Shown: positions 6,627 to 59,551 of the stretch, in pieces
Position numbering within the stretch: the first letter of the stretch is position 1
Layout: every line of letters begins with the position of its first letter
Assembly: GCF_945949885.1 (NCBI RefSeq)
Contig: NZ_CAMFFZ010000005.1
Span: 13,010-77,009 of the forward strand
Source: Veillonella parvula
GTDB lineage: Bacteria; Bacillota; Negativicutes; Veillonellales; Veillonellaceae
Length of the DNA stretch: 64,000 nt
Direction: 5' to 3'
The notes under the pieces: model-generated
What the model was told of the DNA's origin: nothing
What the model saw: only the letters and a program-made list of their open reading frames with translations
The model's database searches: none
Program-made: the position numbers and the translations under genes

Positions 6627-7649
6627 GTGATTGCTATACGAAATGTAACGAAAGAATTTGATGTTAATAAGCAAAAGGTTACTGCATTATCTGATGTAAA
6701 CTTTACCATAGAAAAAGGAGACATATTTGGCATTATTGGCTTCAGTGGAGCTGGCAAATCTACACTGTTACGAATGATTAATGCTTTAGAGGTACCTACC
6801 TCTGGTCATATTGAAATAGATGGTGTGAATATCAATGGCTTAAGTTTTAGCGAGCTCAGAAAGGTTCGTAAGCGCATCGGCATGGTGTTTCAACAGTTTA
6901 ATTTATTGAATGCTAAATCTGTGTATGATAATGTGGCTATCCCGCTAATTCTTAATAGGTTACCAAAATTCGACATTGATAAAAAGGTTAAAACCTTATT
7001 AGACTTTGTTGATTTAGGCGATAAAGCAAATGCATATCCTGGAGAATTATCTGGTGGTCAAAAACAACGCGTTGGTATTGCCCGTGCATTAGCTACAGAT
7101 CCATCTATATTGCTTTGTGATGAAGCAACCAGCGCTCTAGATCCTGATACAACAGAATCTATATTACAATTACTAGAACGTGTTAATCGTGAACTAGGAG
7201 TAACAGTAGTTATCGTAACTCATGAGATCGATGTAATTCAGAAAATATGTAATCGAGTTGTAGTTATGGAGCATGGAAAGCTCATAGAGAGCGGATCTGT
7301 ACTTGAGGTGTTTAGTAAACCTAAACACGAAACAACAAAGCGATTTGTTAGAACTGTAATTCCTGATGAAATTCCATCAACAGTGAAACATACATTAGCT
7401 TGTGATAAAAGGCTATACACAATTCTTAAGATGCATTTCTTAGGAAATAATACGACAGATAATGTTCTATATCATATTAATAAAACCTTTGATTTAGAAA
7501 CGAGTGTATTATTTGCTACGGTAACAGAGTTAGAACATACTGCACTTGGTATATTCATTGTTCGGTTTATTGGCGATGATCTTGAGGTGGGCAAGGTAAA
7601 AGAGTATCTTATTGCTCAAGGTATTGAATGGCAGGAGGTGACACTATAA
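6627..7649 (+). CDS. metN: methionine ABC transporter ATP-binding protein
   Basis: Walker A GFSGAGKST, signature LSGGQKQRVGIARAL, Walker B LLCDEATSALD, and a C-terminal NIL-type domain. GTG at 6627 has an AAGAGG RBS. The ATG at 6603 has none. Confidence 0.9.
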   Translation: MIAIRNVTKEFDVNKQKVTALSDVNFTIEKGDIFGIIGFSGAGKSTLLRMINALEVPTSGHIEIDGVNINGLSFSELRKVRKRIGMVFQQFNLLNAKSVYDNVAIPLILNRLPKFDIDKKVKTLLDFVDLGDKANAYPGELSGGQKQRVGIARALATDPSILLCDEATSALDPDTTESILQLLERVNRELGVTVVIVTHEIDVIQKICNRVVVMEHGKLIESGSVLEVFSKPKHETTKRFVRTVIPDEIPSTVKHTLACDKRLYTILKMHFLGNNTTDNVLYHINKTFDLETSVLFATVTELEHTALGIFIVRFIGDDLEVGKVKEYLIAQGIEWQEVTL

Positions 7650-8320
7650 TGGATTTCTTCATGCAAGAACTTGGTGTTCCAGGATCGCAGTTATTATTAG
7701 CCGCAGAACAGACATTATATATGGTGTTCCTATCTCTATTTATTGGTACAGTACTAGGTCTAATTATCGCAGTCACACTGGTAGTAACAAATCCTAATGG
7801 TATCGTTAAAAATAGTATTGTTTATACCATTACCAATACAATTGTTAATATTGTGCGTTCCGTACCATTTATCATTTTGATGGTGTTTATATTACCGTTA
7901 ACTAAGATGATTGTAGGTACTCGTGTTGGTACAACAGCGGCTATTGTACCACTTGTTATATTCATTGCACCTTATCTTGCTCGACTCTTTGAGAACTCTA
8001 TTTTAGAGGTTAATAAAGGCATTATCGAGGCAGCACAATCGATGGGGGCCTCTCATTTTGAAGTGATTTGGCATTTTCTTTTACCAGAAGCAAAGGGTTC
8101 GCTTATTTTATCTATTACAACGGGTACTATTGGTCTAATCGGTGCTACTGCTATGGCTGGTGCTATTGGTGCTGGTGGTGTAGGTGATTTGGACCTCACC
8201 TATGGTTATGAACGATTGAACTTCCCATTGATGTTATTTACCGTAGTTATTTTGATTATTTTTGTTCAAATTATTCAAACAATAGGTAACTATTTTGCAC
8301 GTCGTGCGCGTCGTTCCTAA
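7649..8320 (+). CDS. metI: methionine ABC transporter permease
   Basis: Its ATG overlaps the metN stop (TAATG). Multi-TM protein with an EAA-like loop (IEAAQSMGAS). Confidence 0.9.
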   Translation: MDFFMQELGVPGSQLLLAAEQTLYMVFLSLFIGTVLGLIIAVTLVVTNPNGIVKNSIVYTITNTIVNIVRSVPFIILMVFILPLTKMIVGTRVGTTAAIVPLVIFIAPYLARLFENSILEVNKGIIEAAQSMGASHFEVIWHFLLPEAKGSLILSITTGTIGLIGATAMAGAIGAGGVGDLDLTYGYERLNFPLMLFTVVILIIFVQIIQTIGNYFARRARRS

Positions 8321-8374
8321 TTTGATAAAATAGATTTTAGTTATATTGATTGTGAAAATATAGGAGAAAATACT

Positions 8375-9199
8375 ATGAAATTTAAAAAGCTTCTTGCCCT
8401 TGGTGCAGCATTAGTATTCAGCGTAGCTTTTATCGCAGGCTGCGGTTCTAATAATAGCGATAATGGTGCTAAAAAAGAATTAACCTACAGTAAATCTCAG
8501 GGTCCTTATTCTGAATTGTTTGAAAAAGGTGTAAAGCCAATTTTGGAGAAACAAGGCTATACTTTTAAAGGCGTAGATATGTCTGATTTGGTACAAGCTG
8601 ACCAAGTGTTAAGTGATGGTGAGGTTGACTTTAACGTTGAACAACATACAGCATACATGAAAAACTTTAACGAAAAACAAAATGGTCATCTTGTAGCATT
8701 AACACCAATTCCAACAGTACCAGCAGGTATCTTTAGTGGTTCTAAAACATCTTTAGATCAAGTGGCAGATGGCGACACTATTGCTGTACCTAATGATGCA
8801 TCCAACATGGCTCGTGCTTATGCGTTATTGCAAAAAATCGGTTGGATTAAGCTTGATCCTAACAAAGATTTAGCAACAGTAACTCAAGCAGATATTATTG
8901 AAAATCCTAAACATCTTAAATTTACAGAAATGAAATCCCTTACAATTCCTTCTGTACGTACTGACTTTGATTATATCGTTATTACAGGCGCTATTATCTA
9001 TAATGCAAAAATTGATCCTAAATCTGCATTGGCAAATGAAGACGTATTGCCACAATGGTTATTACAACTCGTAGTTAATGAGAAAAACAAAGATGCACAA
9101 TGGGCAAAAGACATCGTAGCAGCTTACCAATCTCAAGAATTTAAAGACTACATGGAAAAAAATAACAATGGCCTATGGTTCGTACCAAAAGGTGAATAG
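8375..9199 (+). CDS. metQ: methionine-binding lipoprotein (NlpA/MetQ family)
   Basis: Signal peptide with lipobox IAGC. MetQ-like body. Third gene of the metNIQ arrangement. Confidence 0.9.
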   Translation: MKFKKLLALGAALVFSVAFIAGCGSNNSDNGAKKELTYSKSQGPYSELFEKGVKPILEKQGYTFKGVDMSDLVQADQVLSDGEVDFNVEQHTAYMKNFNEKQNGHLVALTPIPTVPAGIFSGSKTSLDQVADGDTIAVPNDASNMARAYALLQKIGWIKLDPNKDLATVTQADIIENPKHLKFTEMKSLTIPSVRTDFDYIVITGAIIYNAKIDPKSALANEDVLPQWLLQLVVNEKNKDAQWAKDIVAAYQSQEFKDYMEKNNNGLWFVPKGE

Positions 9200-9228
9200 A
9201 ATATATAAAACGTGCTTAGTTGCGGCAT

Positions 9229-9276
9229 AAAAAAGAACCACTGATAAGTTGTAGCTTAGCAGTGGTTCTTTTGTTG
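9229..9276. terminator. terminator between convergent metQ and the ABC exporter genes
   Basis: AAAGAACCACTG / CAGTGGTTCTTT stem flanked by an A-run and a T-run. Confidence 0.8.
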
Positions 9277-9353
9277 TTTGCGGAACTATGTGAGGATAGT
9301 TTTGTGCCTAATTCTAAAAAACTTATAACCTTTAGGTCAGTAATCTCTTTATA

Positions 9354-11177
9354 TTATACTGTCATACCTGCAGCATAGTTTTCATATAGTTCTTTATAGT
9401 GACCACCGCGTTTGATGAGTTCGTGGTGTGTTCCTTGTTCTACGATGATGCCGTTTTCTACAACTAGTAGGAAATCGGCATTTTTTATTGTTGATAAGCG
9501 ATGGGCGATAACGATACTAGTTCGACCTTTGAGAAGGGTGTTCATGGCTTTTTGAACTTCCACCTCGGTGCGGGTATCTACGTTAGCCGTTGCTTCGTCA
9601 AGGATGAGAATGCTAGGATCGGCTAAGAAAGCCCGAGCGATGGTAATTAATTGGCGTTGACCTTGGGATAGATCATCGCCACCTCGGTTGAGCATCGTAT
9701 CATATCCATTTGGTAAGGTGCGGATAAAGTGATCTGCCATGGCAAGCCTTGCTACATGCTCGATTTCTTCTCGTGTAGCATTTGGTTTGCCGTAGCCAAT
9801 ATTATCAGCGATAGTACCAGTGAATATCCAAGCATCTTGTAATACCATGCCCACCGTGTTGTGTAAGCTTTCACGAGATACATCACGAATATCCACGCCA
9901 TCGATGGTGATGCGTCCATTCATAATATCATAGAAGCGCATGATGAGATTCACTAATGTAGATTTACCAGCTCCGGTAGGCCCTACGATGGCTACCATAG
10001 AGCCAGCTGGAATATGGATATTAATATCCTTCATAAACACATTGGACGGTGTATAACCAAAATCAACATGTTTAAAATCGATTGTACCTGTATGGGCCTG
10101 ATTACTCGGGTTTTGGGACATCATAGGTGATTTGGTAGTAGTCGTTTCTGTATCAGCTCCGGATTCATTATCGAATAATGTTAGTTTACCATCGTCAATT
10201 TCAGACTGTGTATCAATGACTTCATAAATACGACCTAAGGCTGCAGCAGTTTCTTGGAATTTTGTCATGATATAGGAGCTGCGAGATAGAGGATCCGATA
10301 CTTGACCTACGTAGAGAAAGAAGGCCTGAATATCCCCAATGGATATGGAGCCACGCAGTACCATGAGCCCTCCTTGAATGGCAACAAGGCAATAGGTGAT
10401 TTGATTTAGAAACTTAACGAGCGGTTCTACTAGTTGACTTGTGAAAGCAGCGCTTCTCATACTTTTAAATAGATTATTATTTAGTACTTTTACTTGACTC
10501 GTCGTATTTTCTTCGAGTCCAAAGGTCTGAATAATCGGTTTGCCTATAACGATTTCTTCAATGCCACTGTTGAAAGCTCCCAATGCATTCTGATTTCTAA
10601 GATATACAAGGCGGGCTCGTTTAGATAGCCACGTTAAGCATACGATACCAATCAGTATGATGACGATGATGGATGCTCCCAGAATTGGGCTAATCCAAAG
10701 CATCATAGCAGTGGCACCGATGATACCGATAATGGCGGACACAAGGCCTGGCACACCTTCGCCTATGGTTTCTGCCACAGCATCTAAGTCTGAGGTGAGA
10801 CGGCTTAGTAAATCACCTCGTTGGTGATCGTGAAAGTATTCGATGGGCAACGAGTATAGATGAGTACTCATGCGTGTACGTAAAGCGAGTACTGTTTTTG
10901 AACCTATAGAGGCCATCATGTATTCCCCAAAGTAGGTGAATAAGGCATGTCCACTATAGATAGCAATAAGCCAGAGAATAATTGTATCAATAGAGGCAAA
11001 TATTGTATTAATGTCTTGGTTTGTTTGTAATCCGCTAACAATAGCATCTACGACCTTGCCAAGTAATACTGGAGCTGATACCTCAAACATAGCTGCTGTG
11101 ATAAGGGCTAAGATGAGTAGTGCTAGCCAACCCCATTGACTTTTAGAATCGATTAGGAAACGACGTAATGGGCTCAT
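9354..11177 (-). CDS. ABC exporter, fused permease/ATPase (heterodimer partner B)
   Basis: Six-TM domain followed by Walker A GPTGAGKST, signature LSQGQRQ and Walker B ILILDEATANVD. Overlaps the upstream partner by 4 nt. Confidence 0.9.
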   Translation of the reverse strand: MSPLRRFLIDSKSQWGWLALLILALITAAMFEVSAPVLLGKVVDAIVSGLQTNQDINTIFASIDTIILWLIAIYSGHALFTYFGEYMMASIGSKTVLALRTRMSTHLYSLPIEYFHDHQRGDLLSRLTSDLDAVAETIGEGVPGLVSAIIGIIGATAMMLWISPILGASIIVIILIGIVCLTWLSKRARLVYLRNQNALGAFNSGIEEIVIGKPIIQTFGLEENTTSQVKVLNNNLFKSMRSAAFTSQLVEPLVKFLNQITYCLVAIQGGLMVLRGSISIGDIQAFFLYVGQVSDPLSRSSYIMTKFQETAAALGRIYEVIDTQSEIDDGKLTLFDNESGADTETTTTKSPMMSQNPSNQAHTGTIDFKHVDFGYTPSNVFMKDINIHIPAGSMVAIVGPTGAGKSTLVNLIMRFYDIMNGRITIDGVDIRDVSRESLHNTVGMVLQDAWIFTGTIADNIGYGKPNATREEIEHVARLAMADHFIRTLPNGYDTMLNRGGDDLSQGQRQLITIARAFLADPSILILDEATANVDTRTEVEVQKAMNTLLKGRTSIVIAHRLSTIKNADFLLVVENGIIVEQGTHHELIKRGGHYKELYENYAAGMTV

Positions 11178-44960: not shown

Positions 44961-46559
44961 ATGATTAGAATAATAAATCTCCGCGTGGCTGTTACGGTTA
45001 AGTCGGATATCAGAAGTATTGTAGAAAAGAGATATCCCCCGTTACGTGGTGCTATCGAAACGATTCATGTTGTTCGACGTGCCGTAGATGCCCGTAAGAA
45101 GCCAAACATTGTTTTTGTATATACCCTATTCATTGAGGTTCATAATGAAGCTCAAGTTATGAAAAAGCTTGGTAAAGAAAAGGATGTATCTGTATTTGCT
45201 GCAGAAGATCCAGAACCTATAGTTTTGGGGTCTGTACCATTAGCACATCGTCCTGTTGTTATGGGCTTTGGTCCTGCGGGGATGCTTGCAGCCTTTTACT
45301 TAGCTCGTGAAGGCTATCGCCCTATCGCACTTGAACGCGGTCAAGATGTAGATACACGTAGTCATGATGTAGAAACATTTTGGAAGAAGGGCGTATTTAA
45401 ACCTGAATCCAACGTACAATTTGGGGAAGGTGGCGCAGGAACTTTTTCCGATGGTAAGTTGACAACTCGCATTACCCATCCGCGTTTACATGAGATATCT
45501 AAATACTTTGTTGAGTTTGGTGCGCCTGAAGAAATATTATATAAACATAAACCTCACGTAGGTACAGATAAATTGCGTACTATGGTAAAAGCCATGCGTG
45601 AGCGCATCATCGAATGGGGCGGTGAAGTCCGTTTTGGTTCTAAGGTAACGGATTTGTTTGTTGAAAATGACCGTATCGTAGGCGTTGAAGTTAATGGTAG
45701 TGAGCGTATTGATACGACTGTTGTTTTGTCTGGTGTAGGCCATAGTGCGCGTGACACATACGAGATGCTTCATAAACGCAATGTGGAAATGACGGCAAAA
45801 CCCTTTGCTATCGGTGTTCGTATTGAACATGATCAGGCTGTAATCGATGAGTCCCAATATGGCGTGGAACCATCTAGCTTGGGCCTCGGTGCAGCAGAAT
45901 ACTCTCTCGTATACCATGATAAAGAAACAGGCCGTACTGCGTATAGCTTCTGTATGTGCCCAGGAGGTCAAGTAGTAGCATCTGCCTCTGAAAATGGTGG
46001 CGTTGTCGTAAATGGCATGAGTTTGTACGCTCGTGATAGCGGTGTTGCCAATAGTGCTATCGTGGTCAACGTAGGTCCAGATGACTTTGGTACTCATCCA
46101 TTAGATGGCGTCGCATTCCAACGAGAATGGGAACGAAAGGCCTATGAGTTGGGCGGATCTAATTTCCATGCACCTGCACAAACAGTAGGGCAGTTTTTAG
46201 GGCTTTCACAAGCACCTAGTGTACAAAATAGTATATATAGCTACGAGCCAGGTGTCGTGAATTGCGATTTACATGATTGCTTGCCACCGTTCGTCACATC
46301 CGTATTAGAGCGAGCCTTGCCATACTGGGGCCGTCGTATCCGTGGATTCGATAATCCTGCGGTGTGTATGACAGGCGTTGAAACGCGTACCTCTGCACCG
46401 CTTCGTATGGGACGCAATGAAGAACGCATTTCTCCTACTGTAGGAGGTTTCTATCCTATGGGTGAAGGAGCTGGCTATGCAGGGGGAATTATGAGTGCTG
46501 CCCTTGATGGTGCGGAAACAGCCATTTTATGTATGGCAAAATACGCTAAACCTAATTAG
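44961..46559 (+). CDS. FAD-dependent protein of the COG2509 type (uncharacterised dehydrogenase)
   Basis: GFGPAGMLAA dinucleotide-binding motif after a ~90-aa N-terminal domain, and a GEGAGYAGGI C-terminal motif. Confidence 0.8.
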   Translation: MIRIINLRVAVTVKSDIRSIVEKRYPPLRGAIETIHVVRRAVDARKKPNIVFVYTLFIEVHNEAQVMKKLGKEKDVSVFAAEDPEPIVLGSVPLAHRPVVMGFGPAGMLAAFYLAREGYRPIALERGQDVDTRSHDVETFWKKGVFKPESNVQFGEGGAGTFSDGKLTTRITHPRLHEISKYFVEFGAPEEILYKHKPHVGTDKLRTMVKAMRERIIEWGGEVRFGSKVTDLFVENDRIVGVEVNGSERIDTTVVLSGVGHSARDTYEMLHKRNVEMTAKPFAIGVRIEHDQAVIDESQYGVEPSSLGLGAAEYSLVYHDKETGRTAYSFCMCPGGQVVASASENGGVVVNGMSLYARDSGVANSAIVVNVGPDDFGTHPLDGVAFQREWERKAYELGGSNFHAPAQTVGQFLGLSQAPSVQNSIYSYEPGVVNCDLHDCLPPFVTSVLERALPYWGRRIRGFDNPAVCMTGVETRTSAPLRMGRNEERISPTVGGFYPMGEGAGYAGGIMSAALDGAETAILCMAKYAKPN

Positions 46560-46746
46560 TGGGGAAATTATACTGATGGATTGAATTACAGTATAGATTC
46601 ATACTATTTATGTAATATAGATGTGACTTTATAGTAGGTATGCTTTCTATATTGTGATATAATACACAACAGTAATTATTGAAATGATACACACGGTAGA
46701 TATATAGACTTGTGAAACTTTCACAAATCCTTAAAGGAGGATAATT

Positions 46747-48099
46747 ATGGCTCGTTTATTTGGTACAGATGGTGTACGTGGTGTTGTTAATGAGTTTTTA
46801 ACGCCAGAATTAGCCTATCATTTAGGTCGTGCGGCAGGAACGCATTTTGGTAAGGAAAAGGAACATCCTACGTTCTTGATTGGGCGCGATACGCGAATTT
46901 CTGGTTCTATGCTTGAAAGTGCATTAGCAGCGGGCATTTGTTCTGTTGGCGGTAATGTAGTGATTGCAGGCGTTATCCCAACTCCAGCAGTAGCGTACCT
47001 TGTACGTCAACAAGGGTTTGATGCGGGTGCTGTTATTTCTGCATCTCACAATCCATATCCAGATAATGGCATTAAATTCTTTGATAGCAATGGCTATAAA
47101 TTACCTGATGAAGTGGAAGATGAATTGGAAAAATATGTTCGTCAAAGTGCAGATAATGAATTGGCGCGTCCTACAGGGAATGGTATAGGTAAAATTGAGT
47201 TTAATAGTAACTTGGCTCATTTATATGCTCATTTCGTACGTCACACAATCGATACGTCCCTTGAAGGGTTGACTATCGTTTATGATGGTGCCAATGGCGC
47301 AGCTTCCAGTGTAGGTCCGGAAATTTTGTCTGGACTAGGGGCTAAAGTCATCAATATTAATGTGAATCCAGATGGCTTGAACATCAATCATCACTGTGGT
47401 TCTACGCATATCGAAGGATTGCAAGTAGCTGTGCAACAACATAATGCAGACCTTGGTATTGCTAATGATGGCGATGCTGACCGCTGTTTATTGGTTGATG
47501 AAAAAGGTCAAGTTCTCGATGGCGATCAAATTATGTTGTTATGCGCTCTTAAGTTGAAAGAAGAAGGCAAACTTAAAGGTGATACCATAGTTGGTACCGT
47601 TATGAGTAATATCGGATTCCATAAAGCAGCAGAAGAACTTGGTATGAAAACGGTTTCCACTGCTGTTGGTGATCGGTATGTATTGGAATACATGCGTGAA
47701 CATAATCTTTCCGTTGGCGGTGAACAATCTGGTCACGTAATCTTCTTAGATCACAACACCACTGGTGACGGTATGTTAACAGCTGTTCAAGTGGCGGCTC
47801 TTATGAAGGAGAAAAAGCAGCCTCTTTCTGAATTGGCTTGCATTATGACAAAATACCCACAAGTTCTTGTAAATGTTCGTGTAGCTACAAAAACTGGCTG
47901 GGAAGATAATGATCTTATCAAAGCTGCTATCGTAACAGCTGAAGGAGAGCTCGGTGACGAAGGTCGCGTACTTGTACGTGCCTCTGGTACAGAACCACTC
48001 ATTCGCGTTATGGCAGAAGGTCCAGACCAAGAAACATTACAATCATTATGTGAAGAAATCGCTGATATTATCGGTAGAGAACAAGGGTTGGCAGAGTAA
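46747..48099 (+). CDS. glmM: phosphoglucosamine mutase
   Basis: MARLFGTDGVRG N-terminus, active-site SASHNP, GDGDADR and GEQSGH motifs. AAGGAGG RBS. Confidence 0.95.
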   Translation: MARLFGTDGVRGVVNEFLTPELAYHLGRAAGTHFGKEKEHPTFLIGRDTRISGSMLESALAAGICSVGGNVVIAGVIPTPAVAYLVRQQGFDAGAVISASHNPYPDNGIKFFDSNGYKLPDEVEDELEKYVRQSADNELARPTGNGIGKIEFNSNLAHLYAHFVRHTIDTSLEGLTIVYDGANGAASSVGPEILSGLGAKVININVNPDGLNINHHCGSTHIEGLQVAVQQHNADLGIANDGDADRCLLVDEKGQVLDGDQIMLLCALKLKEEGKLKGDTIVGTVMSNIGFHKAAEELGMKTVSTAVGDRYVLEYMREHNLSVGGEQSGHVIFLDHNTTGDGMLTAVQVAALMKEKKQPLSELACIMTKYPQVLVNVRVATKTGWEDNDLIKAAIVTAEGELGDEGRVLVRASGTEPLIRVMAEGPDQETLQSLCEEIADIIGREQGLAE

Positions 48100-48114
48100 C
48101 ATAAAATTGAGATT

Positions 48115-48168
48115 AAGACCTCTGAGGTATCTAGTAGTAATTTAGATACTTTAGAGGTCTTTTTTTTC
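48115..48168 (+). terminator. rho-independent terminator after glmM
   Basis: About 19-bp stem AAGACCTCTGAGGTATCTA / TAGATACTTTAGAGGTCTT followed by TTTTTTT. Confidence 0.8.
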
Positions 48169-48223
48169 TCAATATTAAATTAATTAGATATGAGGTGGAA
48201 ATTCCCCATGACATTTATCTTTA

Positions 48224-48252
48224 TTGACTGAAAAGAATTCATAAATTATAAT
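48224..48252 (+). promoter_or_regulatory. near-consensus sigma-70-type promoter of the islet operon
   Basis: TTGACT (48224-48229), 17-nt spacer, TATAAT (48247-48252). Confidence 0.55.
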
Positions 48253-48316
48253 TAGCTCATCAAATATTCATGAGTTTTAAATGAAGCTTTGCGCATGGTT
48301 TATAAAGGTGCTGATT

Positions 48317-49870
48317 ATGGAGTCAAAGAAAAAGAAAGATTATCGTGATAACTTTAGAAATGCATCTATCTCTGGTGGGATGGTAGAGACCGTTGATAGA
48401 TTTGGTTCTGCAAACAAAGAGCATTTAGTTGCGTATTCTGGGATTGATAATGAGCGTTCTAAAGTATTAAAAAAAGGATTAGAAAGAACAGCAAGTTCAA
48501 AAGTTAATTCTAAGTACAAATTTAAGAATGAACACCAACAAGCTGGATTTTCTGCTGAAGATAAAACAGTAGCACGTGCTAATGCAGAGGCAATTATTGA
48601 AAAACGAACAGAGCGCATGGTTCGTACTGATGATATAGGAAGAGTAAATGATCCTCTTTATGATACGGTAATTATAGATCGTGATGGCAATATAGTAGAA
48701 GGAAGTGGAACACAACTTAAATTTGTTGGTGCTGCTGAGAAAGATCCATCAGGAAAATATACTGCAAAACGTGTTGTAGATTATTTAAAAAATAGTAAAA
48801 GAGATAAGTATTGGGAAAATGATGTACCGGTAGAGATTCCATCAGATCAATATAAATCTGTTAAGGATGAATTATTAAAACAAAAAAATAGTATAAAACG
48901 ACAACTTGAAAGTAAAAAAATAAGTGAAGAAACTAGAGCTAAAAAAGAATTACAACTTAAGAAATTAGAAAAAATAGAATCCAAATTGAAAAAAGGTCGA
49001 GTTTCTTCTGCTGAGGCTATAGAGGCTCGTCGTAATCCTAAATTATCAACAATTAAGGACATAAATAAATTATCGCATAGGGCTGGTTTAGAAGGTGCGA
49101 AATATGGAGCTGCTATAGGTGGTATTATGTCGATAATTAATAATACCGTAGCGGTATGCCGTGGCGAGAAAAGCATGTCAGAGGCTATAAAACATGTTGC
49201 ATTAGATACGGGTGTTTCAGGAGGAGTTGGCTATATTTCTACGTATACTGGTGCTGCAATAAAAGGGGTGATGCAAAATTCAAGTAATGCATATATTAGA
49301 ACTATATCTAATACGGGTTTGCCTGGCATTATGGTTTCCGCTACTCTTGCAAGTGGAAAAGTTTTAAATAGATATTTAAAGGGGGAAATAGATGGTGTTC
49401 AGTGTTTGCAAGAGTTAGGACAAGAGAATATGAATATGATTTCTTCTTCTTTATATGCAGTTATTGGGCAAGCACTTATTCCAATTCCTGTTGTGGGAGG
49501 GATAGTAGGCGGAATGATGGGGTATGCATTATCCTCCGCAACATTTAGTTTGCTAAAGAATGCACTAGAAGAAGAGAAATTAGTAAAAGAAAATCGAATA
49601 TTGATTGAAAAAGCTTGTGCTGAACATATTCAGAAAATGCAAGATTATAAGCGTGATTTAGAAGAGTTTGTTAATAAATATATAGCTGAAAGGATTGATT
49701 TATTTAATGAGTCTTTAACAGGGGTTTTGGATGCATTAAATATTGATGATACAGAGTGGTTTGTAGACAGCTGTAATAGTATTACTAAACAATATGGTGG
49801 TGATCCTCTTGTTGACTCTCAAGAAGAGTTTAATAGGAAAATGATTTCCAAAGATGTTTTTGTATTATAA
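48317..49870 (+). CDS. islet protein A: unknown N-terminal domain + Lys-rich coiled coil + Gly-rich hydrophobic (glycine-zipper-like) segments + helical C-terminus
   Basis: ATG at 48317 follows AAAGGTG. Coiled-coil stretch KQKNSIKRQLESKKISEETRAKKELQLKKLEKIESKLKK. Hydrophobic small-residue segments GAKYGAAIGGIMSII, TGVSGGVGYISTYTGAAIKG and IPIPVVGGIVGGMMGYALSS. I recognise no family. Confidence 0.75.
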   Translation: MESKKKKDYRDNFRNASISGGMVETVDRFGSANKEHLVAYSGIDNERSKVLKKGLERTASSKVNSKYKFKNEHQQAGFSAEDKTVARANAEAIIEKRTERMVRTDDIGRVNDPLYDTVIIDRDGNIVEGSGTQLKFVGAAEKDPSGKYTAKRVVDYLKNSKRDKYWENDVPVEIPSDQYKSVKDELLKQKNSIKRQLESKKISEETRAKKELQLKKLEKIESKLKKGRVSSAEAIEARRNPKLSTIKDINKLSHRAGLEGAKYGAAIGGIMSIINNTVAVCRGEKSMSEAIKHVALDTGVSGGVGYISTYTGAAIKGVMQNSSNAYIRTISNTGLPGIMVSATLASGKVLNRYLKGEIDGVQCLQELGQENMNMISSSLYAVIGQALIPIPVVGGIVGGMMGYALSSATFSLLKNALEEEKLVKENRILIEKACAEHIQKMQDYKRDLEEFVNKYIAERIDLFNESLTGVLDALNIDDTEWFVDSCNSITKQYGGDPLVDSQEEFNRKMISKDVFVL

Positions 49871-49879
49871 GGAGGAAAA

Positions 49880-50446
49880 ATGTATTTATCTGGTAATGAT
49901 TATGAAGTTGCGTTGTATTATTTGTTTATGCTTTCTGATAATAAATTGACTGATGATGAAATGAAACTTTTTAAAAATATATGCTTTCGTTTAGATAAGA
50001 TGGATTCATACGAAGCCATTATAAATTATTGTGATTCACTAGGAAGAGAATCTAGCTTTACGAAGTTAGAAAATGAAAAAATTGCCGAGCAATTAGAAAG
50101 CTATTACTACTCTAAAGAAATTGATTCTAAATTTTCTAAAGGTCGTTTGATTGAAATCATATGGAATCTTATTGGGTTAGCAAAAAGTGATAGTGATTAT
50201 AGTGAATTTGAAAAGCATATGATTTTACATCTCTGTAATTCTTGGAATATTAATGAATCAGTTTATAAAGAGTTATTAGATTGCTCTCGGACTATGGATT
50301 GCATCGAATCTTATAGAGGTTGGGTTAGAAATACATTATCTGCTGATAAAGGGCTATTTGAAGAGGAGAAGCTTATTGATGATCAATTAACCCTAATTCA
50401 AAATATGGTAGCTAATTCAGCAAAAGAATTTACTATAAATGCATAG
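49880..50446 (+). CDS. islet protein B: cytoplasmic helical protein, TerB-like (tentative)
   Basis: GGAGG RBS. Two copies of the TerB-type pattern: MLSDNKLTDDEMKLFKNI and LAKSDSDYSEFEKHMILHL, compared with A.ADG.....E...l. Confidence 0.7.
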   Translation: MYLSGNDYEVALYYLFMLSDNKLTDDEMKLFKNICFRLDKMDSYEAIINYCDSLGRESSFTKLENEKIAEQLESYYYSKEIDSKFSKGRLIEIIWNLIGLAKSDSDYSEFEKHMILHLCNSWNINESVYKELLDCSRTMDCIESYRGWVRNTLSADKGLFEEEKLIDDQLTLIQNMVANSAKEFTINA

Positions 50447-50458
50447 GAGGTTAATATT

Positions 50459-51454
50459 ATGCCATTACCATTATTATTAATTGCAGGTGCAGCTGTTGCT
50501 GGTACTATTGGTGTAGGAAAAACTATTGATGCTATTAGTACTCAAAATAAAGCTAACGATATAAATGATGATGCTCAAAGTATTGTAGACTATGCTAAGA
50601 GCAAAATGTCTTTTGCCAGAGTCGCTTCTGGAGAATCTTTAAGCCTGTTGGGTGAATGTAAAGTTAAAATTTTGAATTCTTCTATTCACAATTTTGTAAA
50701 TGAATTTAGTAAGGTAACTAATGTAGAAACAGATAACTCCGTTGATACATCTTTTGAACTTGTGATTGACGAAAAAGAGCTGGAAGAGTTAAAAGAATTA
50801 TCTGTTATTGCATCTTCTTTAGCAAAAGGTGCCGCTGGAGGTGTGGTATCTGGAGCTGTTACTGCTTTTGGTGCATATAGTGCTGCCGGTATTTTAGCAT
50901 CTGCATCTACTGGGACTGCAATTGCTACATTGAGTGGTGCTGCCGCAACTAATGCTACATTGGCCTTTTTTGGCGGAGGCTCGATAGCTGCAGGTGGTCT
51001 TGGAATAGCAGGTGGAACTGCTGTTTTAGGTGGGCTTGTTGCAGCGCCAGCCTTAGTAATTTTAGGTGTAGTTGCATCATCTAAAGCTAATGCGAACCTC
51101 GAAGATGCAAGATCCAATTTGGCAAAAGCAAAAGCTTTTGACTCTGAAATCGATTTAGCTGTAACAGAATGTGCCTCAATAAGACGTGGTGCAGATATGC
51201 TGAATAGATTTTTGATATCTTTAAATTCGATATTTGCTCCATTAGTATTTGAAATGACAGATATAATTAATCGTAAAGGAACTGATTTTAGTTTATATTC
51301 AGATGGAGATAAGCAGATATTTAGGAAAGCGGGTACATTGGCACGTACTATTAAATCCATTTTAAATATAGCTATCTTAAATGATGATGGTAAGCATGAC
51401 TCTAATAGCATTGCACAATTAGAAGCTATAAAAAAAGAATCTAACCTTGTTTAG
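50459..51454 (+). CDS. islet protein C: N-terminal TM helix + helical region + ~90-aa Gly/Ala-zipper hydrophobic core + helical C-terminus
   Basis: GGAGG RBS. Core sequence GAAGGVVSGAVTAFGAYSAAGILASASTGTAIATLSGAAATNATLAFFGGGSIAAGGLGIAGGTAVLGGLVAAPALVILGVVASS. Confidence 0.75.
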   Translation: MPLPLLLIAGAAVAGTIGVGKTIDAISTQNKANDINDDAQSIVDYAKSKMSFARVASGESLSLLGECKVKILNSSIHNFVNEFSKVTNVETDNSVDTSFELVIDEKELEELKELSVIASSLAKGAAGGVVSGAVTAFGAYSAAGILASASTGTAIATLSGAAATNATLAFFGGGSIAAGGLGIAGGTAVLGGLVAAPALVILGVVASSKANANLEDARSNLAKAKAFDSEIDLAVTECASIRRGADMLNRFLISLNSIFAPLVFEMTDIINRKGTDFSLYSDGDKQIFRKAGTLARTIKSILNIAILNDDGKHDSNSIAQLEAIKKESNLV

Positions 51455-51474
51455 TTAAATTTTACGGATTAATT

Positions 51475-51726
51475 ATGTTTTTATGTGATAAATGTGGATT
51501 ATGTTGTAGAAATATTGATAAAGTTCCGCAATTAAAAGAGTTTCATAATGGTGATGGTATCTGTAAATTTTTGACTAATAATAAATGTAGTATATATGAG
51601 AGCAGGCCATTAATCTGTAATATTGATAAAGTTTATGAATTATTCTTTAGTAATTTATATACTTTGGAGGAGTTTTATAAATTGAATTATCAGGTGTGTA
51701 TGATTTTAAAGAAACATAAAGTTTAA
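51475..51726 (+). CDS. islet protein D: YkgJ-family Cys-cluster (CxxCxxCC) zinc/iron-chelating domain protein
   Basis: CDKCGLCC at the N-terminus and CSIYESRPLIC further on, the two hallmark blocks of the YkgJ/UPF0153 family. 83 aa. Confidence 0.75.
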   Translation: MFLCDKCGLCCRNIDKVPQLKEFHNGDGICKFLTNNKCSIYESRPLICNIDKVYELFFSNLYTLEEFYKLNYQVCMILKKHKV

Positions 51727-51773
51727 TTTTGATTATAAAACTTTATAGTATAGATTCTAAAAAGTAAAGATAA

Positions 51774-51806
51774 TGAGTAGGAGCTAATTTATTCCTACTC
51801 GTTATT
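51774..51806 (+). terminator. terminator of the islet operon
   Basis: GAGTAGGA / TCCTACTC stem followed by a T-rich tail. Confidence 0.65.
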
Positions 51807-51816
51807 AAAATCATTG

Positions 51817-52260
51817 GTTTTGATAGTTGATGACCGTTATGTATTGGAATATATGCGTGAACACAATCTCTCCGTTGGCGGTGAACAATCTGGTCACGTA
51901 ATCTTCTTAGATCACAACACCACTGGTGACGGTATGTTAACAGCTGTTCAAGTGGCGGCTCTTATGAAGGAGAAAAAGCAGCCTCTTTCTGAATTGGCTT
52001 GCATTATGACAAAATACCCACAAGTTCTTGTAAATGTTCGTGTAGCTACAAAAACTGGCTGGGAAGATAATGATCTTATCAAAGCTGCTATCGTAACAGC
52101 TGAAGGAGAGCTCGGTGACGAAGGTCGCGTCTTAGTACGTGCATCCGGGACAGAACCACTCATTCGTGTCATGGCTGAAGGACCTAACCAAGAAGAACTA
52201 CAATCTCTGTGCCAAGAAATCGCTGATATTATCGGTAGAGAACAAGGGTTGGCGGAATAA
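51817..52260 (+). pseudogene. glmM' : displaced duplicate of the last ~145 codons of glmM, with no start or promoter
   Basis: Alignable to 47658-48099. Positions 51871-52130 are identical to 47710-47969. It ends with its own stop and a diverged C-terminal coding stretch. Confidence 0.9.
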
Positions 52261-52585
52261 AAGTAGGGTGTGAGGCGGCAGAGGAGCTTGCGACGATGAA
52301 GCCCACACATCACTTTGTTCCGAGCGTAAGATTTCGGAAAGCAAAATCCACAGCGAGGAACCATCTTTACTGAGATTAATCTTATGGATTTTAATAATTG
52401 TGAATTCATTCTACAATTTTTATATCAAAGGTATACCCTCCTATATATGTCCCTTTGCTCCGTCCTACGTAAAGTCGCCGCAGGAACATATATAGGAGGT
52501 TTAGAGATAAGTGATATTTTAAATTGAATAATCATAATGAATAACTTTTTTGTTTTGGGTTATTCTAAGCTTAGAGGGTGACATT

Positions 52586-53281
52586 ATGAAAACAATAGGC
52601 TTAATTGGGGGAATGAGCTGGGAAAGTACGATTACGTATTACCAAGTTTTGAATGAAACTATTAAGCAAGTTTTGGGCGGCTTACATTCGGCAAAATGTA
52701 TTTTATATAGCGTTGATTTTGAAGAAATAGAAAAGTGCCAGGCAAATGGCGATTGGGATAGAAGCGCTGAAATTTTATCCGATGCGGCTCAATCTCTTGA
52801 AAAGGCTGGTGCTGATTATATTGTTATATGCACGAATACAATGCATAAAGTAGCGGATGAAATAGAAAAACATATTCACATACCTCTTCTTCATATTGCG
52901 GAAATGACTGCAGTAGAGTTAGAAAAATCAGGTATTACAAAGGTAGGTCTACTCGGTACCAAGTACACGATGCAACAAGATTTTTATAAATGTATCTTGG
53001 AAAATCGGGGGATTCATGTTGTTATCCCTAACGAAGATCAAGTTGAACTTGTGAATGGTATTATATACAATGAATTGTGTTTAGGTGTTATTTCTAATGA
53101 ATCTAAACAACAATACTTAGATATTATTGGTGATTTGGTAAAATCTGGTGTACAAGGTGTTATTTTAGGCTGTACTGAAATCGGACTACTTATTAAACAG
53201 GATGATACAGATATACCGTTATTTGATACTACATTGATACATGCAAAAAATGCGGCGTTGATTTCTATTGGTAGAGCATAA
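52586..53281 (+). CDS. aspartate/glutamate racemase-family protein (aspartate racemase-like)
   Basis: MKTIGLIGGMSWEST N-terminus, with catalytic Cys contexts ICTNTMH and LGCTEI. Confidence 0.85.
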   Translation: MKTIGLIGGMSWESTITYYQVLNETIKQVLGGLHSAKCILYSVDFEEIEKCQANGDWDRSAEILSDAAQSLEKAGADYIVICTNTMHKVADEIEKHIHIPLLHIAEMTAVELEKSGITKVGLLGTKYTMQQDFYKCILENRGIHVVIPNEDQVELVNGIIYNELCLGVISNESKQQYLDIIGDLVKSGVQGVILGCTEIGLLIKQDDTDIPLFDTTLIHAKNAALISIGRA

Positions 53282-53314
53282 TATAGTTAGCTTTTATTTT
53301 TGTTTAAATAACAT

Positions 53315-53372
53315 AACCCTCTATTAGATATTTTTATTCATTTTTAGAATATCTAATAGAGGGTTGTTTTTA
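53315..53372 (+). terminator. rho-independent terminator
   Basis: 17-bp stem AACCCTCTATTAGATAT / ATATCTAATAGAGGGTT followed by GTTTTT. Confidence 0.85.
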
Positions 53373-53520
53373 TGCAATTAGAACTAGCTAGAGACTAAAG
53401 GAAATCTTTTAGCATGGTTTGAATTTATATGAGAGGAGTTACTATAGGCACGTATATAGGAAGTAATTTGTGTTATTATAGCCATATAGTCTGAAATATA
53501 TTCGATAGAAAAGGTGTAAT

Positions 53521-54633
53521 ATGAAGCTTGCTATAAAAGAGTATTGGGAAAATCTTAAAGTAGAATATGAAGCTACATATAATGCGTCTATATTTAGTGA
53601 TTATGATGTGCTAAAGCAATACGCAGAGCGTTTTAGAACGTATTTAATTACTTTGATGTGTGAGTATTCTAATGATGTGGATGTGGCCTGTACTTTAGCA
53701 ACTGTTGAACAGGTGTTGAGGGATGAGAAAAATTCAATACAACTATTGGAAGGGTTCCTTGAAGCTTATACTAATGAACTTAGTGATACTGATAAAGCGA
53801 GAATTTACACTAATTTGGCTTTTTATTATAACGATGAGGGGAGTATAAAAGAATATGACTATCTATCAGCAGCTGTAAAGTTAGATTCTCCATATATAGA
53901 GACTTACAGAGGGCTGGCTTTATATCATTTTTCCTCTTATGCAGATAAGGGTTCAATAGAGGAGTTGAAGAAAAGTTTATGTGCCTTTGAAAAGGGAAGA
54001 ATAGTATCCAACGATTATGAAATGAACTTTGGCTATGCAGTGTGTTTGTTTGAGCTTAAGAAATATGAGAAAGCAAAGGTCATTTTTGAAGAGTTATTAA
54101 AAAGCTATCCCAATAGAATGAGATTACTAGTTTGTATTGTTTATTGTGATGTCTATTTAGGTAATAAAAAGCAAGCCCTCGATCGTTTGAAGCAAATTAA
54201 GCTTGGAGGTGATGTAGCATATCATTTAAGTAATGATGAAGTTTTTGAGTTTGATATCATTGACGCCTATTATATATTAGATGAGTATGGCCTATTCTTA
54301 GATGAGTGTGAAAAGGCTAAAGAGCACTGTGATTTAAGTGATGGCCCTTATTACTTTGGTCTTTTGATTATGAATCAACATGATATGTTCCATCGTGAAG
54401 TGGACAAGCAACGAACAGAAATATTGGCATGCATTGAAAATGCAAAAATGGACGAAGACTTTGATAGCGAAGAAGAAAAGCAGGACTATATCAAAAGCTG
54501 GGAAGATGATTTAGAGAATCTAAATTTGTTGGAACATAAAATTAAAGATGAAAACTTTAAACCTACAGTTGAACTAAAACTATGGCCAATATATGGTTGC
54601 TATTTAATAGATTGTTTAACTCATAATTTTTAA
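53521..54633 (+). CDS. cytoplasmic helical-repeat (TPR-like) protein of unknown function
   Basis: AT-rich ORF with TPR-like helix pairs (e.g. FELKKYEKAKVIFEELLKSYPNRMR). No signal peptide. Confidence 0.65.
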   Translation: MKLAIKEYWENLKVEYEATYNASIFSDYDVLKQYAERFRTYLITLMCEYSNDVDVACTLATVEQVLRDEKNSIQLLEGFLEAYTNELSDTDKARIYTNLAFYYNDEGSIKEYDYLSAAVKLDSPYIETYRGLALYHFSSYADKGSIEELKKSLCAFEKGRIVSNDYEMNFGYAVCLFELKKYEKAKVIFEELLKSYPNRMRLLVCIVYCDVYLGNKKQALDRLKQIKLGGDVAYHLSNDEVFEFDIIDAYYILDEYGLFLDECEKAKEHCDLSDGPYYFGLLIMNQHDMFHREVDKQRTEILACIENAKMDEDFDSEEEKQDYIKSWEDDLENLNLLEHKIKDENFKPTVELKLWPIYGCYLIDCLTHNF

Positions 54634-54705
54634 TCTGCTTATTGGTAGATTTATATAAAGATGATTTATATATTTAAACTGATATACAAGTAAGTTTAAC
54701 AAATT

Positions 54706-54752
54706 AAAAGCACTACTTTGAATTGCAATTATTCAGAGTAGTGCTTTTGTTA
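54706..54752. terminator. bidirectional terminator between convergent genes
   Basis: AAAAGCACTACT / AGTAGTGCTTTT stem. Confidence 0.8.
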
Positions 54753-56150
54753 TTATTTATCAGCTACAACAAGTTTATATCCATTCAATTGAATGTTACT
54801 GCCGGTTGTGTCTTCGTTGCTCAAGGATTTTACATGGCTGTCGCCAGTGAGTATCCAATTGGAGTCTTTGCTGAGTTTCACAGTTACTTCTTTAGCCGTA
54901 TTGTCTGTGTTTACAGCACCTACAAGGCTAGATCCATTTGTCATGTCAAGAGCGATGGTACTGATTGAATCGGCCATAATATTACCGCTTAGTTCTTGAT
55001 TAGATGCGCGGAGTGTAAGGTGACCGCCGTTCTCACCAGTTTTTCCCCAACGGGAGTCAGCAGCTGCTTTCACTAGGGTAGATGTGTTCGGCATAGAGAT
55101 TGCATTGTTAGAAAGGTCTACTTCAGCAATGGTGTTGTTTACATAGAGGAACGCACCTGTAGCGTGAGTTGTGAGTGTGTTATTCTCTGCTTTCAGACGA
55201 GCAATACCGCTTTCAGCATCACCAGAGAAGCTTTGATATAGCATGAAGCCATTATCTTTGTAGCCTGTTACATTGGAGTTTGTAAGGGTTATGGAATTTT
55301 TACCTTCTACGACGCCAATTTCACTGTTATTCGCTATGCCGTTGACATTGTTTACCATAATATTACCCGTGGAGTAGATAACAGGACTGCCTTCGCCAGA
55401 TGTGGTGAGTTTGGCTGCTTCTGCGGTGATAGTGCCTTCTCCGCGATCTGTAGCAAGTGTAGCGGAGTGAGCCCCTTCAGTGGTGATAGTTAGGTTTTTG
55501 CCATTTACAGTACCTTTGTAAGTAGCATCTAAACCACGAGAGGAATCGCTTTTTGTGTGAATATTAGTATTTTCTACGTTGATAACCGAGCCTTCGCCAG
55601 TGGCAAAGACTGCATTAGAGCCTTTAGCGTTAGATGTAATATTGCTACCCTTGATATTGATTTGACTGCCGTCAATGCTGAGAACTACTGCATTTTGACC
55701 ACGAAAATTGCTGTTATCGTCGTTTGTAGTGTTGCCAGTCTTATCGAAAACACTATTTTCAATATCAATTATCGCTTTATTTTTACCGATGAAAGCATTC
55801 TGATCGGCTGTTGTGTTTGTCATCGACTCATGAGCAATGGATTTGTTTTCTGTAACGATAGTTGAGCCTTTGAAAGTATTAGGATCTACTTCGGCTTGTG
55901 GTGCCATACCATTAGGACCACCGTTTGGAGATGTGCTTCCTTGTGCGGATGGTACTGTTTTGGTTTGCTCTGTTGTGGTTACAACTGCGATGTTAGTGTT
56001 AGACTGAGTTTCTGCTGCTAAGGTTGGAATAACCGCTAATGTCGACAGAGCTGCACCAAGGACCGCAGGTAATATCCAACGACGCAATTTTCTATATGAT
56101 AAACTATTCTTTTTAGTTTTATGTTGCTTCTTTATAGTTGTTTTATTCAT
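54753..56150 (-). CDS. secreted parallel beta-helix-like repeat protein
   Basis: Basic N-terminus plus signal peptide (..RRWILPAVLGAALSTLAVIPTLAAE). The rest is Asn/Gly/Thr/Ser-rich ~20-25-aa repeats (..GSNITSNAKGSNAVFATGEGSVINVENTNI..). The ATG at 56150 is preferred over the longer ORF. Confidence 0.75.
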   Translation of the reverse strand: MNKTTIKKQHKTKKNSLSYRKLRRWILPAVLGAALSTLAVIPTLAAETQSNTNIAVVTTTEQTKTVPSAQGSTSPNGGPNGMAPQAEVDPNTFKGSTIVTENKSIAHESMTNTTADQNAFIGKNKAIIDIENSVFDKTGNTTNDDNSNFRGQNAVVLSIDGSQINIKGSNITSNAKGSNAVFATGEGSVINVENTNIHTKSDSSRGLDATYKGTVNGKNLTITTEGAHSATLATDRGEGTITAEAAKLTTSGEGSPVIYSTGNIMVNNVNGIANNSEIGVVEGKNSITLTNSNVTGYKDNGFMLYQSFSGDAESGIARLKAENNTLTTHATGAFLYVNNTIAEVDLSNNAISMPNTSTLVKAAADSRWGKTGENGGHLTLRASNQELSGNIMADSISTIALDMTNGSSLVGAVNTDNTAKEVTVKLSKDSNWILTGDSHVKSLSNEDTTGSNIQLNGYKLVVADK

Positions 56151-56305
56151 GATTAATATCTCCCAAATTATATACATACATTTTGAAAATACAACAAAAT
56201 CTAATTGTGTAAAATTTAGAATGATAGAAGTATAATTTCTTACAATGAAAAGGACGTGAAGCATAGAAACAATCTTTTTTATTCCTTTTGAATTATCTTA
56301 GGTGG

Positions 56306-56335
56306 TTTACTTTTTATCGATTTTTTTAGTATAAT
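56306..56335 (+). promoter_or_regulatory. candidate promoter of the glmS leader
   Basis: TTTACT, 18-nt spacer, TATAAT (56330-56335). Confidence 0.4.
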
Positions 56336-56399
56336 ATACCTCAGTACATATTTTATTTGTACTGATTCTGCCATATATCACAGAAAGGAATTCCGAATT

Positions 56400-56546
56400 C
56401 GTAAAGGCGAATAGCGCAAGTACCCACGAAGGCAGTCGTTAGGGTAGACGAGGTGAAGAGTGATCGAGTCATCAGCGGATGCTCTTCCGGCATATTCATG
56501 TCGTAACAGGTATTAAAAAACCCATCGGTAACGATGGGGACAAAGT
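56400..56546 (+). ncRNA. glmS leader: glmS ribozyme (GlcN6P-dependent self-cleaving riboswitch)
   Basis: AGCGC at 56413 (expected cleavage just 5' of it), then GACGAGGTGAAGAG..ATCGA...CAGCGGATGCTCTTCCGGC...GTAAC...CCCATCGGTAACGATGGGGACAAAG. This matches the conserved glmS ribozyme core blocks. It lies ~130 nt upstream of glmS. Confidence 0.85.
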
Positions 56547-56673
56547 ATATCTGAATGAATTGTATTGAATTAATAATTAATATATTAAATAGAATATTAA
56601 TCTAGAACATTAATTAGTTAGCCTTAGTTTTTGCTGGGGCTAGAAATACCCCCAGTTATAGGAGGATATACTC

Positions 56674-59551
<2,878 letters not shown>

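Follow-up and report, generated by a model that had tools for sequence, protein, structure and literature searches.

How can four genes come to lie between two copies of the end of an essential gene when no enzyme that might have placed them there is encoded nearby? The question is raised by a stretch of 64,000 nucleotides (nt) of Veillonella parvula DNA (assembly GCF_945949885.1, contig NZ_CAMFFZ010000005.1, positions 13,010 to 77,009), referred to here as the window and used for all coordinates unless another locus is named. In this window the gene glmM is followed by an islet made of a four-gene cassette and, behind it, a fragment repeating the glmM 3' end. We believe, with a probability of roughly 0.72, that the islet is a candidate defence cassette in a mobile-element-free hotspot between glmM and glmS, and that it has been moved and remodelled by homologous recombination. 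The puzzle of the missing recombinase then disappears, because homologous recombination needs none.

The duplicated end of glmM

The intact glmM (46747-48099; this and all other features lie on the + strand unless stated) is an open reading frame (ORF) for a phosphoglucosamine mutase of 450 amino acids (aa), with the Pfam domains PGM_PMM_I-IV found on an identical called gene, and its protein is 98% identical to the GlmM of V. parvula and V. hominis. Its last 435 nt (47665-48099, copy 1) recur at 51826-52260 (copy 2), with an offset of 4161 nt in an ungapped comparison; the repeat-finding output gave 98% identity for 47665-47964 against 51826-52125. The duplication had been noticed in an original prediction made from the letters of the window, and alignment confirms that it is real. 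The second copy had been said there to begin at 51817; the fragment is present, but its homology to glmM begins at 51826, the copy 2 ORF opening slightly upstream with a TTG start at 51814. Attempts to extend the fragment leftward of 51826 gave chance-level similarity only, and past the stop codon no similarity was found between the two copies.

The identity between the copies is very uneven. Segment A (47665-47709) has six mismatches, where the prediction had rightly seen mismatches before the identical block but had counted five in 39 nt. Segment B (47710-47969, equal to 51871-52130) has none across 260 nt, exactly as predicted, and segment C (47970-48052) has 20 by a recount of the site list, giving the peptide difference PDQETLQSLCEE versus PNQEELQSLCQE that had also been correctly described. 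Segment D (48053-48092) is again free of mismatches across 40 nt, and beyond it there are two synonymous differences, at 48093 and 48096. If 28 mismatches were placed uniformly over 435 nt, a mismatch-free run of at least 260 nt would have P <= 3.7e-10. An assembly artefact can be dismissed, as islet and fragment recur together in more than 25 ENA and Logan assemblies that are independent of each other (contigs of up to 537 kb), with the caveat for the window type that its 260-nt exact repeat is longer than short-read k-mers.

The site is polymorphic, as the prediction had supposed. All 11 GTDB Veillonella species representatives (11/11) have an empty site, with neither cassette nor fragment. 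Among the other loci compared (numbered L001, L002 and so on), those found by the exact GlmM protein comprise five in which the arrangement is the same (L001-L005, 99.3-100% identity) and one empty site, L006, in which a racemase gene follows 326 nt after glmM and there is no islet. The exact racemase protein led to more conspecific empty sites (L110 and L112-L115). Islet carriers are L001-L005, L094-L109, L170 and L171, so that the relatives are far from sharing one arrangement and differ by insertion or deletion of the whole islet. The exact 83-aa protein of the cassette is found in 1609 blocks of the public assembly collection, and in the ten places listed for it (L100-L109) cassette and glmM fragment occur together in 10/10. 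The ORF of the window-type fragment, in turn, is found in 12 blocks of the same collection against those 1609, which makes the window a rare variant.

Diagnostic-site matrices separate three types of fragment. In the predominant one (13 loci: L094-L097, L100-L106, L108 and L109), copy 1 has V. parvula-group sequence to 48067 and then the islet end GCAGAGTAA, and copy 2 differs from its own copy 1 along its whole length (58/429 mismatches, ca. 86% identity) and ends in GCTGAA-AAG without TAA; we call this diverged sequence F-type. In the window, copy 2 is foreign only in its first 45 nt (51826-51870, segment A_F) and conspecific from 51871 on, at positions that are F-type in those 13 other loci. 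L107 is of a third type, foreign up to the equivalent of ca. 47823 and then conspecific, with the two copies identical over 47824-48005. The window and the predominant type have seven diagnostic bases of A_F in common, including that of a private change, G308D, at 51830; the A_F of L107 has one extra private difference, at 47695. To the left of the fragment, a junction filler of ca. 19 nt (51807-51825) is identical in the window, L100 and L107, and a microhomology check found in it only a weak ATnAAAA similarity to glmM. Because filler and A_F, G308D included, are common to all three types, the cassette-fragment junction would have arisen once, and we take the diverged F-type fragment to be the ancestral state.

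Where this fragment comes from can be narrowed down. Compared with the F-type sequence, L012 has 28/429 mismatches, a V. infantium metagenome-assembled genome (MAG) 41 and the V. parvula group 58-60. A 57-mer joining intact upstream glmM to A_F was found in 50 metagenome contigs of another Veillonella group, and the 47 intact F-like glmM genes have 23-36/432 mismatches to the fragment, i.e., 93-95% identity; no intact F-type glmM identical to it was found among the 50 loci. Compared with these 47 genes the fragment has nine private substitutions, of which six are non-synonymous (G308D, G324S, G342D, D389N, A412T and A433V) and three hit invariant glycines. This mostly non-synonymous private change is what identifies it as a drifted pseudogene. 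G308D, which lies within A_F and occurs in 0/47 of the intact genes, is the only one of the private changes kept by copy 2 of the window. By its sequence, the fragment is thus best described as a decaying foreign pseudogene from a V. infantium-like species group.

With these types in hand the mosaic of the window becomes readable. Segment A of copy 1 is host-type (0 mismatches to the empty site L006, 1-2 to V. parvula-group representatives, 6 to copy 2) and segment B is the allele proper to this lineage (no difference to L006, 12-13 to V. parvula representatives). Segment C is a tail allele, C_X, encoding PDQETLQSLCEE, with 20 mismatches to V. parvula-group representatives, 20 to copy 2 and 10 to L087. 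Segment D is near-invariant across Veillonella and holds the left junction of the islet, as L006 changes inside it from copy-1 type to copy-2 type. Only then comes the islet-specific glmM end GCAGAGTAA (48093-48099), where empty sites have GCG/GCT GAA TAA; A at 48093 and G at 48096 are present in every islet-bearing copy 1 and in no empty site. These two synonymous sites and the terminator are all that the islet contributes to glmM, and on every islet-bearing contig the intact gene is host-type to within 7-32 nt of its stop codon. Copy 2, after the foreign remnant, continues over 51871-52260 as conspecific glmM, with the same B allele as copy 1, a second tail allele, C_N, and the native stop region; its native end GCGGAATAA and its flank match the empty sites L006 and L112. 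The non-coding flank that normally follows the glmM stop (type T1, 52261-52500) is near-invariant across species, has no Rfam match, and could offer right-hand homology for recombination.

The prediction had left to be decided which of the two glmM tails is native, and the answer is that each is found at empty sites: C_X at L006, L110, L114 and L115, there with the native end, and C_N (PNQEELQSLCQE) at L112, L113 and in the V. parvula and V. hominis representatives. The C_N of window copy 2 has 1-4 mismatches to V. parvula/V. hominis and one to L112/L113. Since both occur at empty sites, C_X and C_N are to be seen as standing alleles of a highly mosaic gene. Conspecific glmM genes alternate between 0 and 5-20 differences per 90 nt, and the tail of L014 is half C_X and half C_N. 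Besides, the glmM of the window and that of L006 are identical except at ca. 47330-47560.

The three sharp boundaries would accordingly differ in kind. The first, a switch within 47710-47733, is probably the left end of a tract that overwrote the fragment; the second, 47969/47970, appears to be the border of two standing tail alleles; and the third, inside the 40-nt block, we read as the true left junction of the islet. In the 260-nt block the copies agree because each now bears the B allele of this lineage, and the tails differ because copy 1 has C_X and copy 2 has C_N. The overwriting tract must have come from a conspecific glmM that still had its native flank, in an exchange that accompanied the acquisition of the islet or followed it. 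Two earlier models of ours, one built from L006 alone (a mostly foreign fragment and a crossover in the 40-nt block) and one from the species representatives (a reciprocal crossover in segment B), were superseded once unconverted F-type fragments had been found.

A cassette in the glmM-glmS interval

The gene order around the islet is cdaA, ybbR, a gene for an FAD protein, glmM, a variable interval, the glmS ribozyme and glmS. The ribozyme (RF00234, 95 bits) lies at 56402-56563, upstream of glmS (56674-58506), and forms the far edge of the variable interval. What lies in this interval differs between strains and species, and the cargo found among relatives includes this cassette, restriction-modification (RM) systems, a racemase, TPR proteins, SUKH proteins and a LeoBC-like cassette, and the interval behaves as a hotspot for defence and competition genes. 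Individual cases are an MmeI-type RM fusion (L087, 11690-15304), a C5 methylase with a SinI-type endonuclease (L107, 7146-9433) and SUKH/SMI1-type immunity-like proteins (L093, 12311-12922; L167, 11596-12207).

The prediction had also found no integrase, transposase or terminal inverted repeat, and the wider comparison agrees. No integrase, transposase or relaxase was called within 6-10 kb in more than 25 related contigs, a repeat search of the window islet found no terminal inverted repeats, and the whole window has no tRNA or tmRNA gene that might serve as an integration target. The coding space of the islet is fully accounted for by the ORFs of the window. Its G+C content is ca. 0.25-0.42, against 0.41-0.44 in the upstream core genes, and the flank past the fragment is also low (0.30-0.37). 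Between L004 and the window there are three differing sites in 46500-53500 and ca. 86 in 54000-58000, a pattern consistent with the exchange of a block of ca. 7 kb, containing the islet, as a linear fragment. Further along, between-strain single-nucleotide differences reach their highest density in the gene for a 503-aa protein (54753-56264, - strand) with a signal-like N-terminus, a repetitive Thr/Asn/Gly-rich sequence and no family match; its length varies from 465 to 544 aa among strains, and by these features it could be a surface protein or adhesin.

The cassette begins with an intrinsic terminator for glmM (48115-48169, a 20-pair stem at 48115-48161 followed by a T run), which belongs to the cassette module and is conserved in L087 and L100. 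Its promoter (48224-48252, TTGACT-17-TATAAT, 11/12 matches) is conserved in L087, L093 and L167 and is also found before a different cassette in L126. Gene 1 (48317-49870, 517 aa) matches the PADLOC model PDC-M09B (E 1.8e-14); its ORF opens at 48281 (529 aa), and the start codon at 48317 is the one conserved across species. It has 1089 homologs, mostly ca. 50% identical and ca. 518 aa long, and the few that are named by source come from Clostridia and Fusobacterium. No PDB or NCBIfam match was found for it, and a PF26373 label carried by homologs of the 529-aa protein was not reproduced with Pfam. Gene 2 (49880-50446, 188 aa) encodes a TerB-domain protein (Pfam TerB, E 4.7e-8, above the family cut-off). 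Gene 3 (50459-51454, 331 aa), with a helical hairpin and a Gly/Ala-rich core, matches PDC-M09A (E 1.3e-21) and has 4914 homologs, the few source-named ones from Clostridia. In the AlphaFold2 model of this protein (predicted local distance difference test, pLDDT, 61.5) a long helical hairpin surrounds a core of low confidence, and a Foldseek search with the model returned long coiled coils with E > 0.04 and nothing informative. The Gly/Ala-rich segments of both large proteins are probably membrane-embedded. Gene 4 (51475-51726, 83 aa) is a cysteine-cluster protein of the YkgJ type, CxxCxxCC (PF03692, E 2.3e-7). The module closes with a hairpin, GAGTAGGA...TCCTACTC (51775-51806), and homology to the fragment-free cassettes of other species stops at 51806.

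Both component models of the PADLOC candidate system PDC-M09 are therefore matched, by the 331-aa and the 529-aa proteins. The cassette departs from that candidate in having the TerB gene between the two matches and the CxxCxxCC gene after them, and no mention of PDC-M09 was found in the literature searched. From this similarity to PADLOC hidden Markov models (HMMs), together with the neighbouring RM, SUKH and LeoBC-like genes, a defence role is plausible. Searches with the cassette gave no hits in phage records and only three weak ones in plasmids. An imperfect 29-nt direct repeat (25/29) joins the 3' half of the terminator (48135-48163) to the inside of the CxxCxxCC gene (51648-51676); we judged it a probable coincidence, with ca. 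0.02 expected in 10 kb by a rough estimate.

Homologs of the 331-aa protein at 84% and ca. 64% identity led us to the same cassette in other Veillonella species. L087-L092, L093 and L167 have the same four genes, terminator and promoter directly 3' of glmM, and no fragment. The nucleotide identity of the L087-L092 cassette to that of the window is 86%, and in L087 the homology runs from glmM to 51806, where an MmeI-type RM gene follows. A second partial glmM copy was detected with tblastn in V. parvula-group loci only. As other species carry the cassette without it, the duplication is a peculiarity of one version of the cassette.

Behind glmM, three F-like contigs (L118, L126 and L145) have a terminator much like that of our cassette and almost the same promoter and leader, but a different, LeoBC-like cassette. 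In L126 (ca. 6895-11146) this consists of a 694-aa dynamin-like GTPase (PADLOC LeoBC, E 3e-15) and proteins of 212 and at least 446 aa. The comparison suggests a shared expression module with swappable cargo. Another record, L169 (P0123, a Joint Genome Institute contig), contains at 2882-4431 only the stretch 48914-50463 of the window, at 99.6% identity, among genes for an RVT_1/sigma-54 activator and HicAB. We rejected it as a case of the cassette at another locus, as it is a partial stretch amid unrelated genes; a chimeric contig is probable, and a partial cassette transfer less likely.

The flank of glmM deserves a remark of its own. Just 3' of the stop region, a GC-rich element of ca. 105 nt (52261-52370, AAGTAGGGTGTGAGGCGGCAGAGG...CAGCGAGGAACC) hardly varies between Veillonella species with glmM genes that differ by 5-18%. 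Two hairpins are predicted in it by RNAalifold (-35 kcal/mol), with one compensatory pair only, and a search of Rfam at E <= 0.1 gave no match. Farther on, at ca. 52440-52500, lies another conserved hairpin, which ends in GGAGG. The conserved tract from 52261 to ca. 52500 may be an unannotated RNA derived from the 3' untranslated region, or a leader.

Probable homologous recombination and its rivals

The sequence of events that we favour is the following. A four-gene, candidate anti-phage cassette with its own terminator and promoter occupies the variable glmM-glmS interval, and in the V. parvula-group version a 5'-truncated, 435-nt glmM 3' end is fused ca. 100 nt past its last gene. The fragment derives from another Veillonella lineage, F, to which L012, the V. 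infantium MAG and the 50 metagenome contigs are closest among the sampled sequences, and would be the non-functional relic of one illegitimate join. This first junction might have formed by homology-facilitated illegitimate recombination, with DNA from a cassette-bearing donor entering an F-like host and later passing to the V. parvula group, or else by circularisation of a glmM'-cassette segment from an F-like chromosome. Cassette and fragment would then have spread between strains by RecA-type homologous recombination, plausibly after natural transformation. Left-hand homology would be given by glmM, in which foreign sequence has been eroded right up to the heterology, and right-hand homology by the fragment or by the conserved flank. 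The mosaic of the window would be secondary, a recombination tract having replaced the fragment from 51871 through the native stop into the flank and left 45 foreign nt; L107 would have been overwritten in a like manner, but with breakpoints of its own. The original prediction had offered, as second choices, acquisition by homologous recombination and a later conversion behind the sharp identity boundaries, and both were judged largely correct. Natural competence is common in V. parvula isolates (PMC5397411), and in transformable species, hotspots that lack mobile elements and are flanked by core genes undergoing recombination are over-represented (Oliveira et al., 2017, PMC5635113).

Several points weigh against this account. 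An intact F-type glmM followed by the cassette, the configuration expected of a donor, is present in 0/50 F-like loci, and the 45-mer GCCGATGTTATCGGTAGAGAACAAGGGTTGGCAGAGTAACATAAA, which spans the predicted donor or circle junction, had 0 hits in the metagenome contig collection, a collection that may not sample it. Instead of being a standing allele, C_X might mark empty sites from which the islet was lost through the 40-nt block, and the cassette-bearing L087 has 10 mismatches to C_X against 17 to the parvula-type tail. The shared blocks of the window and of L107 each carry the B allele of their own lineage, though at least three B alleles segregate, and this fits events on a single chromosome, whether gap repair or one reciprocal crossover, slightly better than two independent exchanges. 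Finally, the defence function is suggested by HMM similarity to a PADLOC candidate and by genomic context only, and transformation, plausible as it is, is a route taken from the literature (PMC5397411).

One alternative is a Campbell-type insertion-duplication, which we regard as unlikely, though with a real chance of being right. Here a 4161-bp circle or permuted unit, composed of the glmM' fragment, the glmM end, the terminator and the cassette, would have entered glmM by a reciprocal crossover or by ends-in gap repair. The circle would have come from recombination between the repeats or from a circularised donor segment, the fragment would act as a portable homology arm, and the identical block would be the tract of the crossover or of the gap repair. 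The two copies of the window are indeed reciprocal, copy 1 passing from host A and B to C_X and the islet end, and copy 2 from foreign A to host B, C_N and the native end. L107 is alike with other breakpoints, its own B allele filling the identical block at 47824-48005, and in the predominant type copy 1 passes into the islet and copy 2 loses its F-type sequence within the same 25 nt (48068-48092). Reciprocal hybrids are thus found in the window and in L107, and the predominant type is compatible with them without being compelling. Moreover, the sequence inserted with respect to L006 measures exactly one repeat period, 4161 nt, and has the 40-nt block at its borders; F-like species also carry the terminator and promoter module 3' of glmM. 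On the other side, besides the missing junction 45-mer, the cassette is on no F-like contig. The GCTGAA-AAG end occurs in 7/47 intact F-like genes and in 0 parvula-group genes, so the foreign tract probably passes the proposed crossover. The block shared by the window and L004 also reaches 1-1.6 kb past both repeats, as expected of a linear fragment and not of a 4.2-kb circle.

A bolder version of the same thought, and one that we hold to be doubtful, is a self-armed mobile unit that needs no recombinase, in which RecA would loop out the 4161-bp circle between glmM and the glmM' fragment. If this were true, the circle could, after uptake by a competent cell, re-enter any Veillonella glmM by a single or ends-in crossover, its insertion would be independent of the variable DNA downstream of glmM, and the lineage-specific identical blocks of the window and L107 would be the footprints of such events.

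Intrachromosomal gene conversion, with copy 1 converting the central 260 nt of a diverged copy 2, would explain why the identical block is sharp-edged, why it is the strain's own allele and why other strains keep an unconverted fragment. However, the changed tract continues past 52130 through C_N, the restored TAA and the native flank. As copy 1 has neither the C_N allele nor a T1 flank nor the native end GCGGAATAA, conversion from copy 1 to copy 2 is not the whole story, and an extra, earlier exchange would be required for the rest. As a full explanation we think it improbable.

The reading that the original prediction had preferred, the remnant of an integrase-driven element (prophage, integrative and conjugative element, integrative and mobilizable element or satellite) that supplied a replacement gene end, displaced the original and later lost its recombinase, has in its favour that a gene 3' end is directly repeated at the two junctions, that the islet is low in G+C, that empty sites exist and that e14 and phage 21 at icd look similar, but it is very improbable, as neither a recombinase nor a pseudogene of one turned up in more than 25 contigs with at least three fragment types or in three other cassette-bearing species, the islet has no unaccounted coding space and supplies only the last 7 nt of glmM, the fragment is foreign and not the displaced host end, fragment-free cassettes occupy the same place, the cassette is absent from phage records and nearly so from plasmids, and the junctions have, in place of a short attachment (att) core at both, a 435-nt repeat with homology on both sides of any possible core, its foreign part upstream in copy 2 and breakpoints that vary by lineage.

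Comparison with known systems

If homologous recombination is indeed responsible, the locus gives a case at nucleotide resolution of a probable defence cassette that moves through a commensal population without mobility genes, by homology in an essential gene alone. The duplicated end of a gene is commonly taken for an integrase footprint, yet it can also be a foreign pseudogene that hitch-hikes and is step by step overwritten by recombination; this is a caution for automated callers of islands and att sites. The locus is also a test bed in a naturally transformable species of the mouth and gut, and its PDC-M09-like cassette with TerB and CxxCxxCC genes is widespread and uncharacterised.

One resemblance is to the elements e14 and phage 21 in the icd gene of Escherichia coli, where the 3' end of an essential gene is duplicated with scattered, mostly synonymous differences and a pseudogene fragment is left at the far junction. 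These elements encode an integrase and supply a whole replacement end from a short att core. The duplicated end of an essential metabolic gene and the pseudogene fragment at the far junction are found here too, but the islet has no integrase, supplies 7 nt, and has homology on both sides of the exchange points. Campbell-type insertion-duplication, a laboratory technique that uses circular or permuted DNA in naturally competent bacteria, also yields an insert between direct duplications of a homologous segment, with reciprocal hybrid copies like those described above. Here, in contrast, no circular form has been observed, and exchange of linear fragments explains the natural history better in part.

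Orphan 3' fragments at Rhs, contact-dependent inhibition (CDI) and type VI secretion system (T6SS) loci have been explained by homology-facilitated illegitimate recombination (Kirchberger et al., 2017, PMC5361080). As in our islet, the incoming module is anchored in the upstream gene, a truncated 3' piece is left downstream, and there is no recombinase. The gene is in our case a housekeeping enzyme, with a single fragment and not an array, and with no linked immunity gene. Besides, the fragment is not the recipient's own former end: it is foreign in most of its present-day hosts and only ca. 86% identical to the host gene, although the recipient's own end could hold for an unsampled first host.

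The best match is with the mobile-element-free hotspots described by Oliveira et al. (2017, PMC5635113). The one feature that sets our locus apart is that, in one version of the cargo, part of the flanking core gene is repeated at the far end. Otherwise the likeness extends to the variable cargo between glmM and glmS, the absence of mobility genes, the mosaic flanking core gene and the transformable genus. The locus is, in other words, of a kind already known, gene exchange at a mobile-element-free hotspot, and nothing in it is unexpected in kind.

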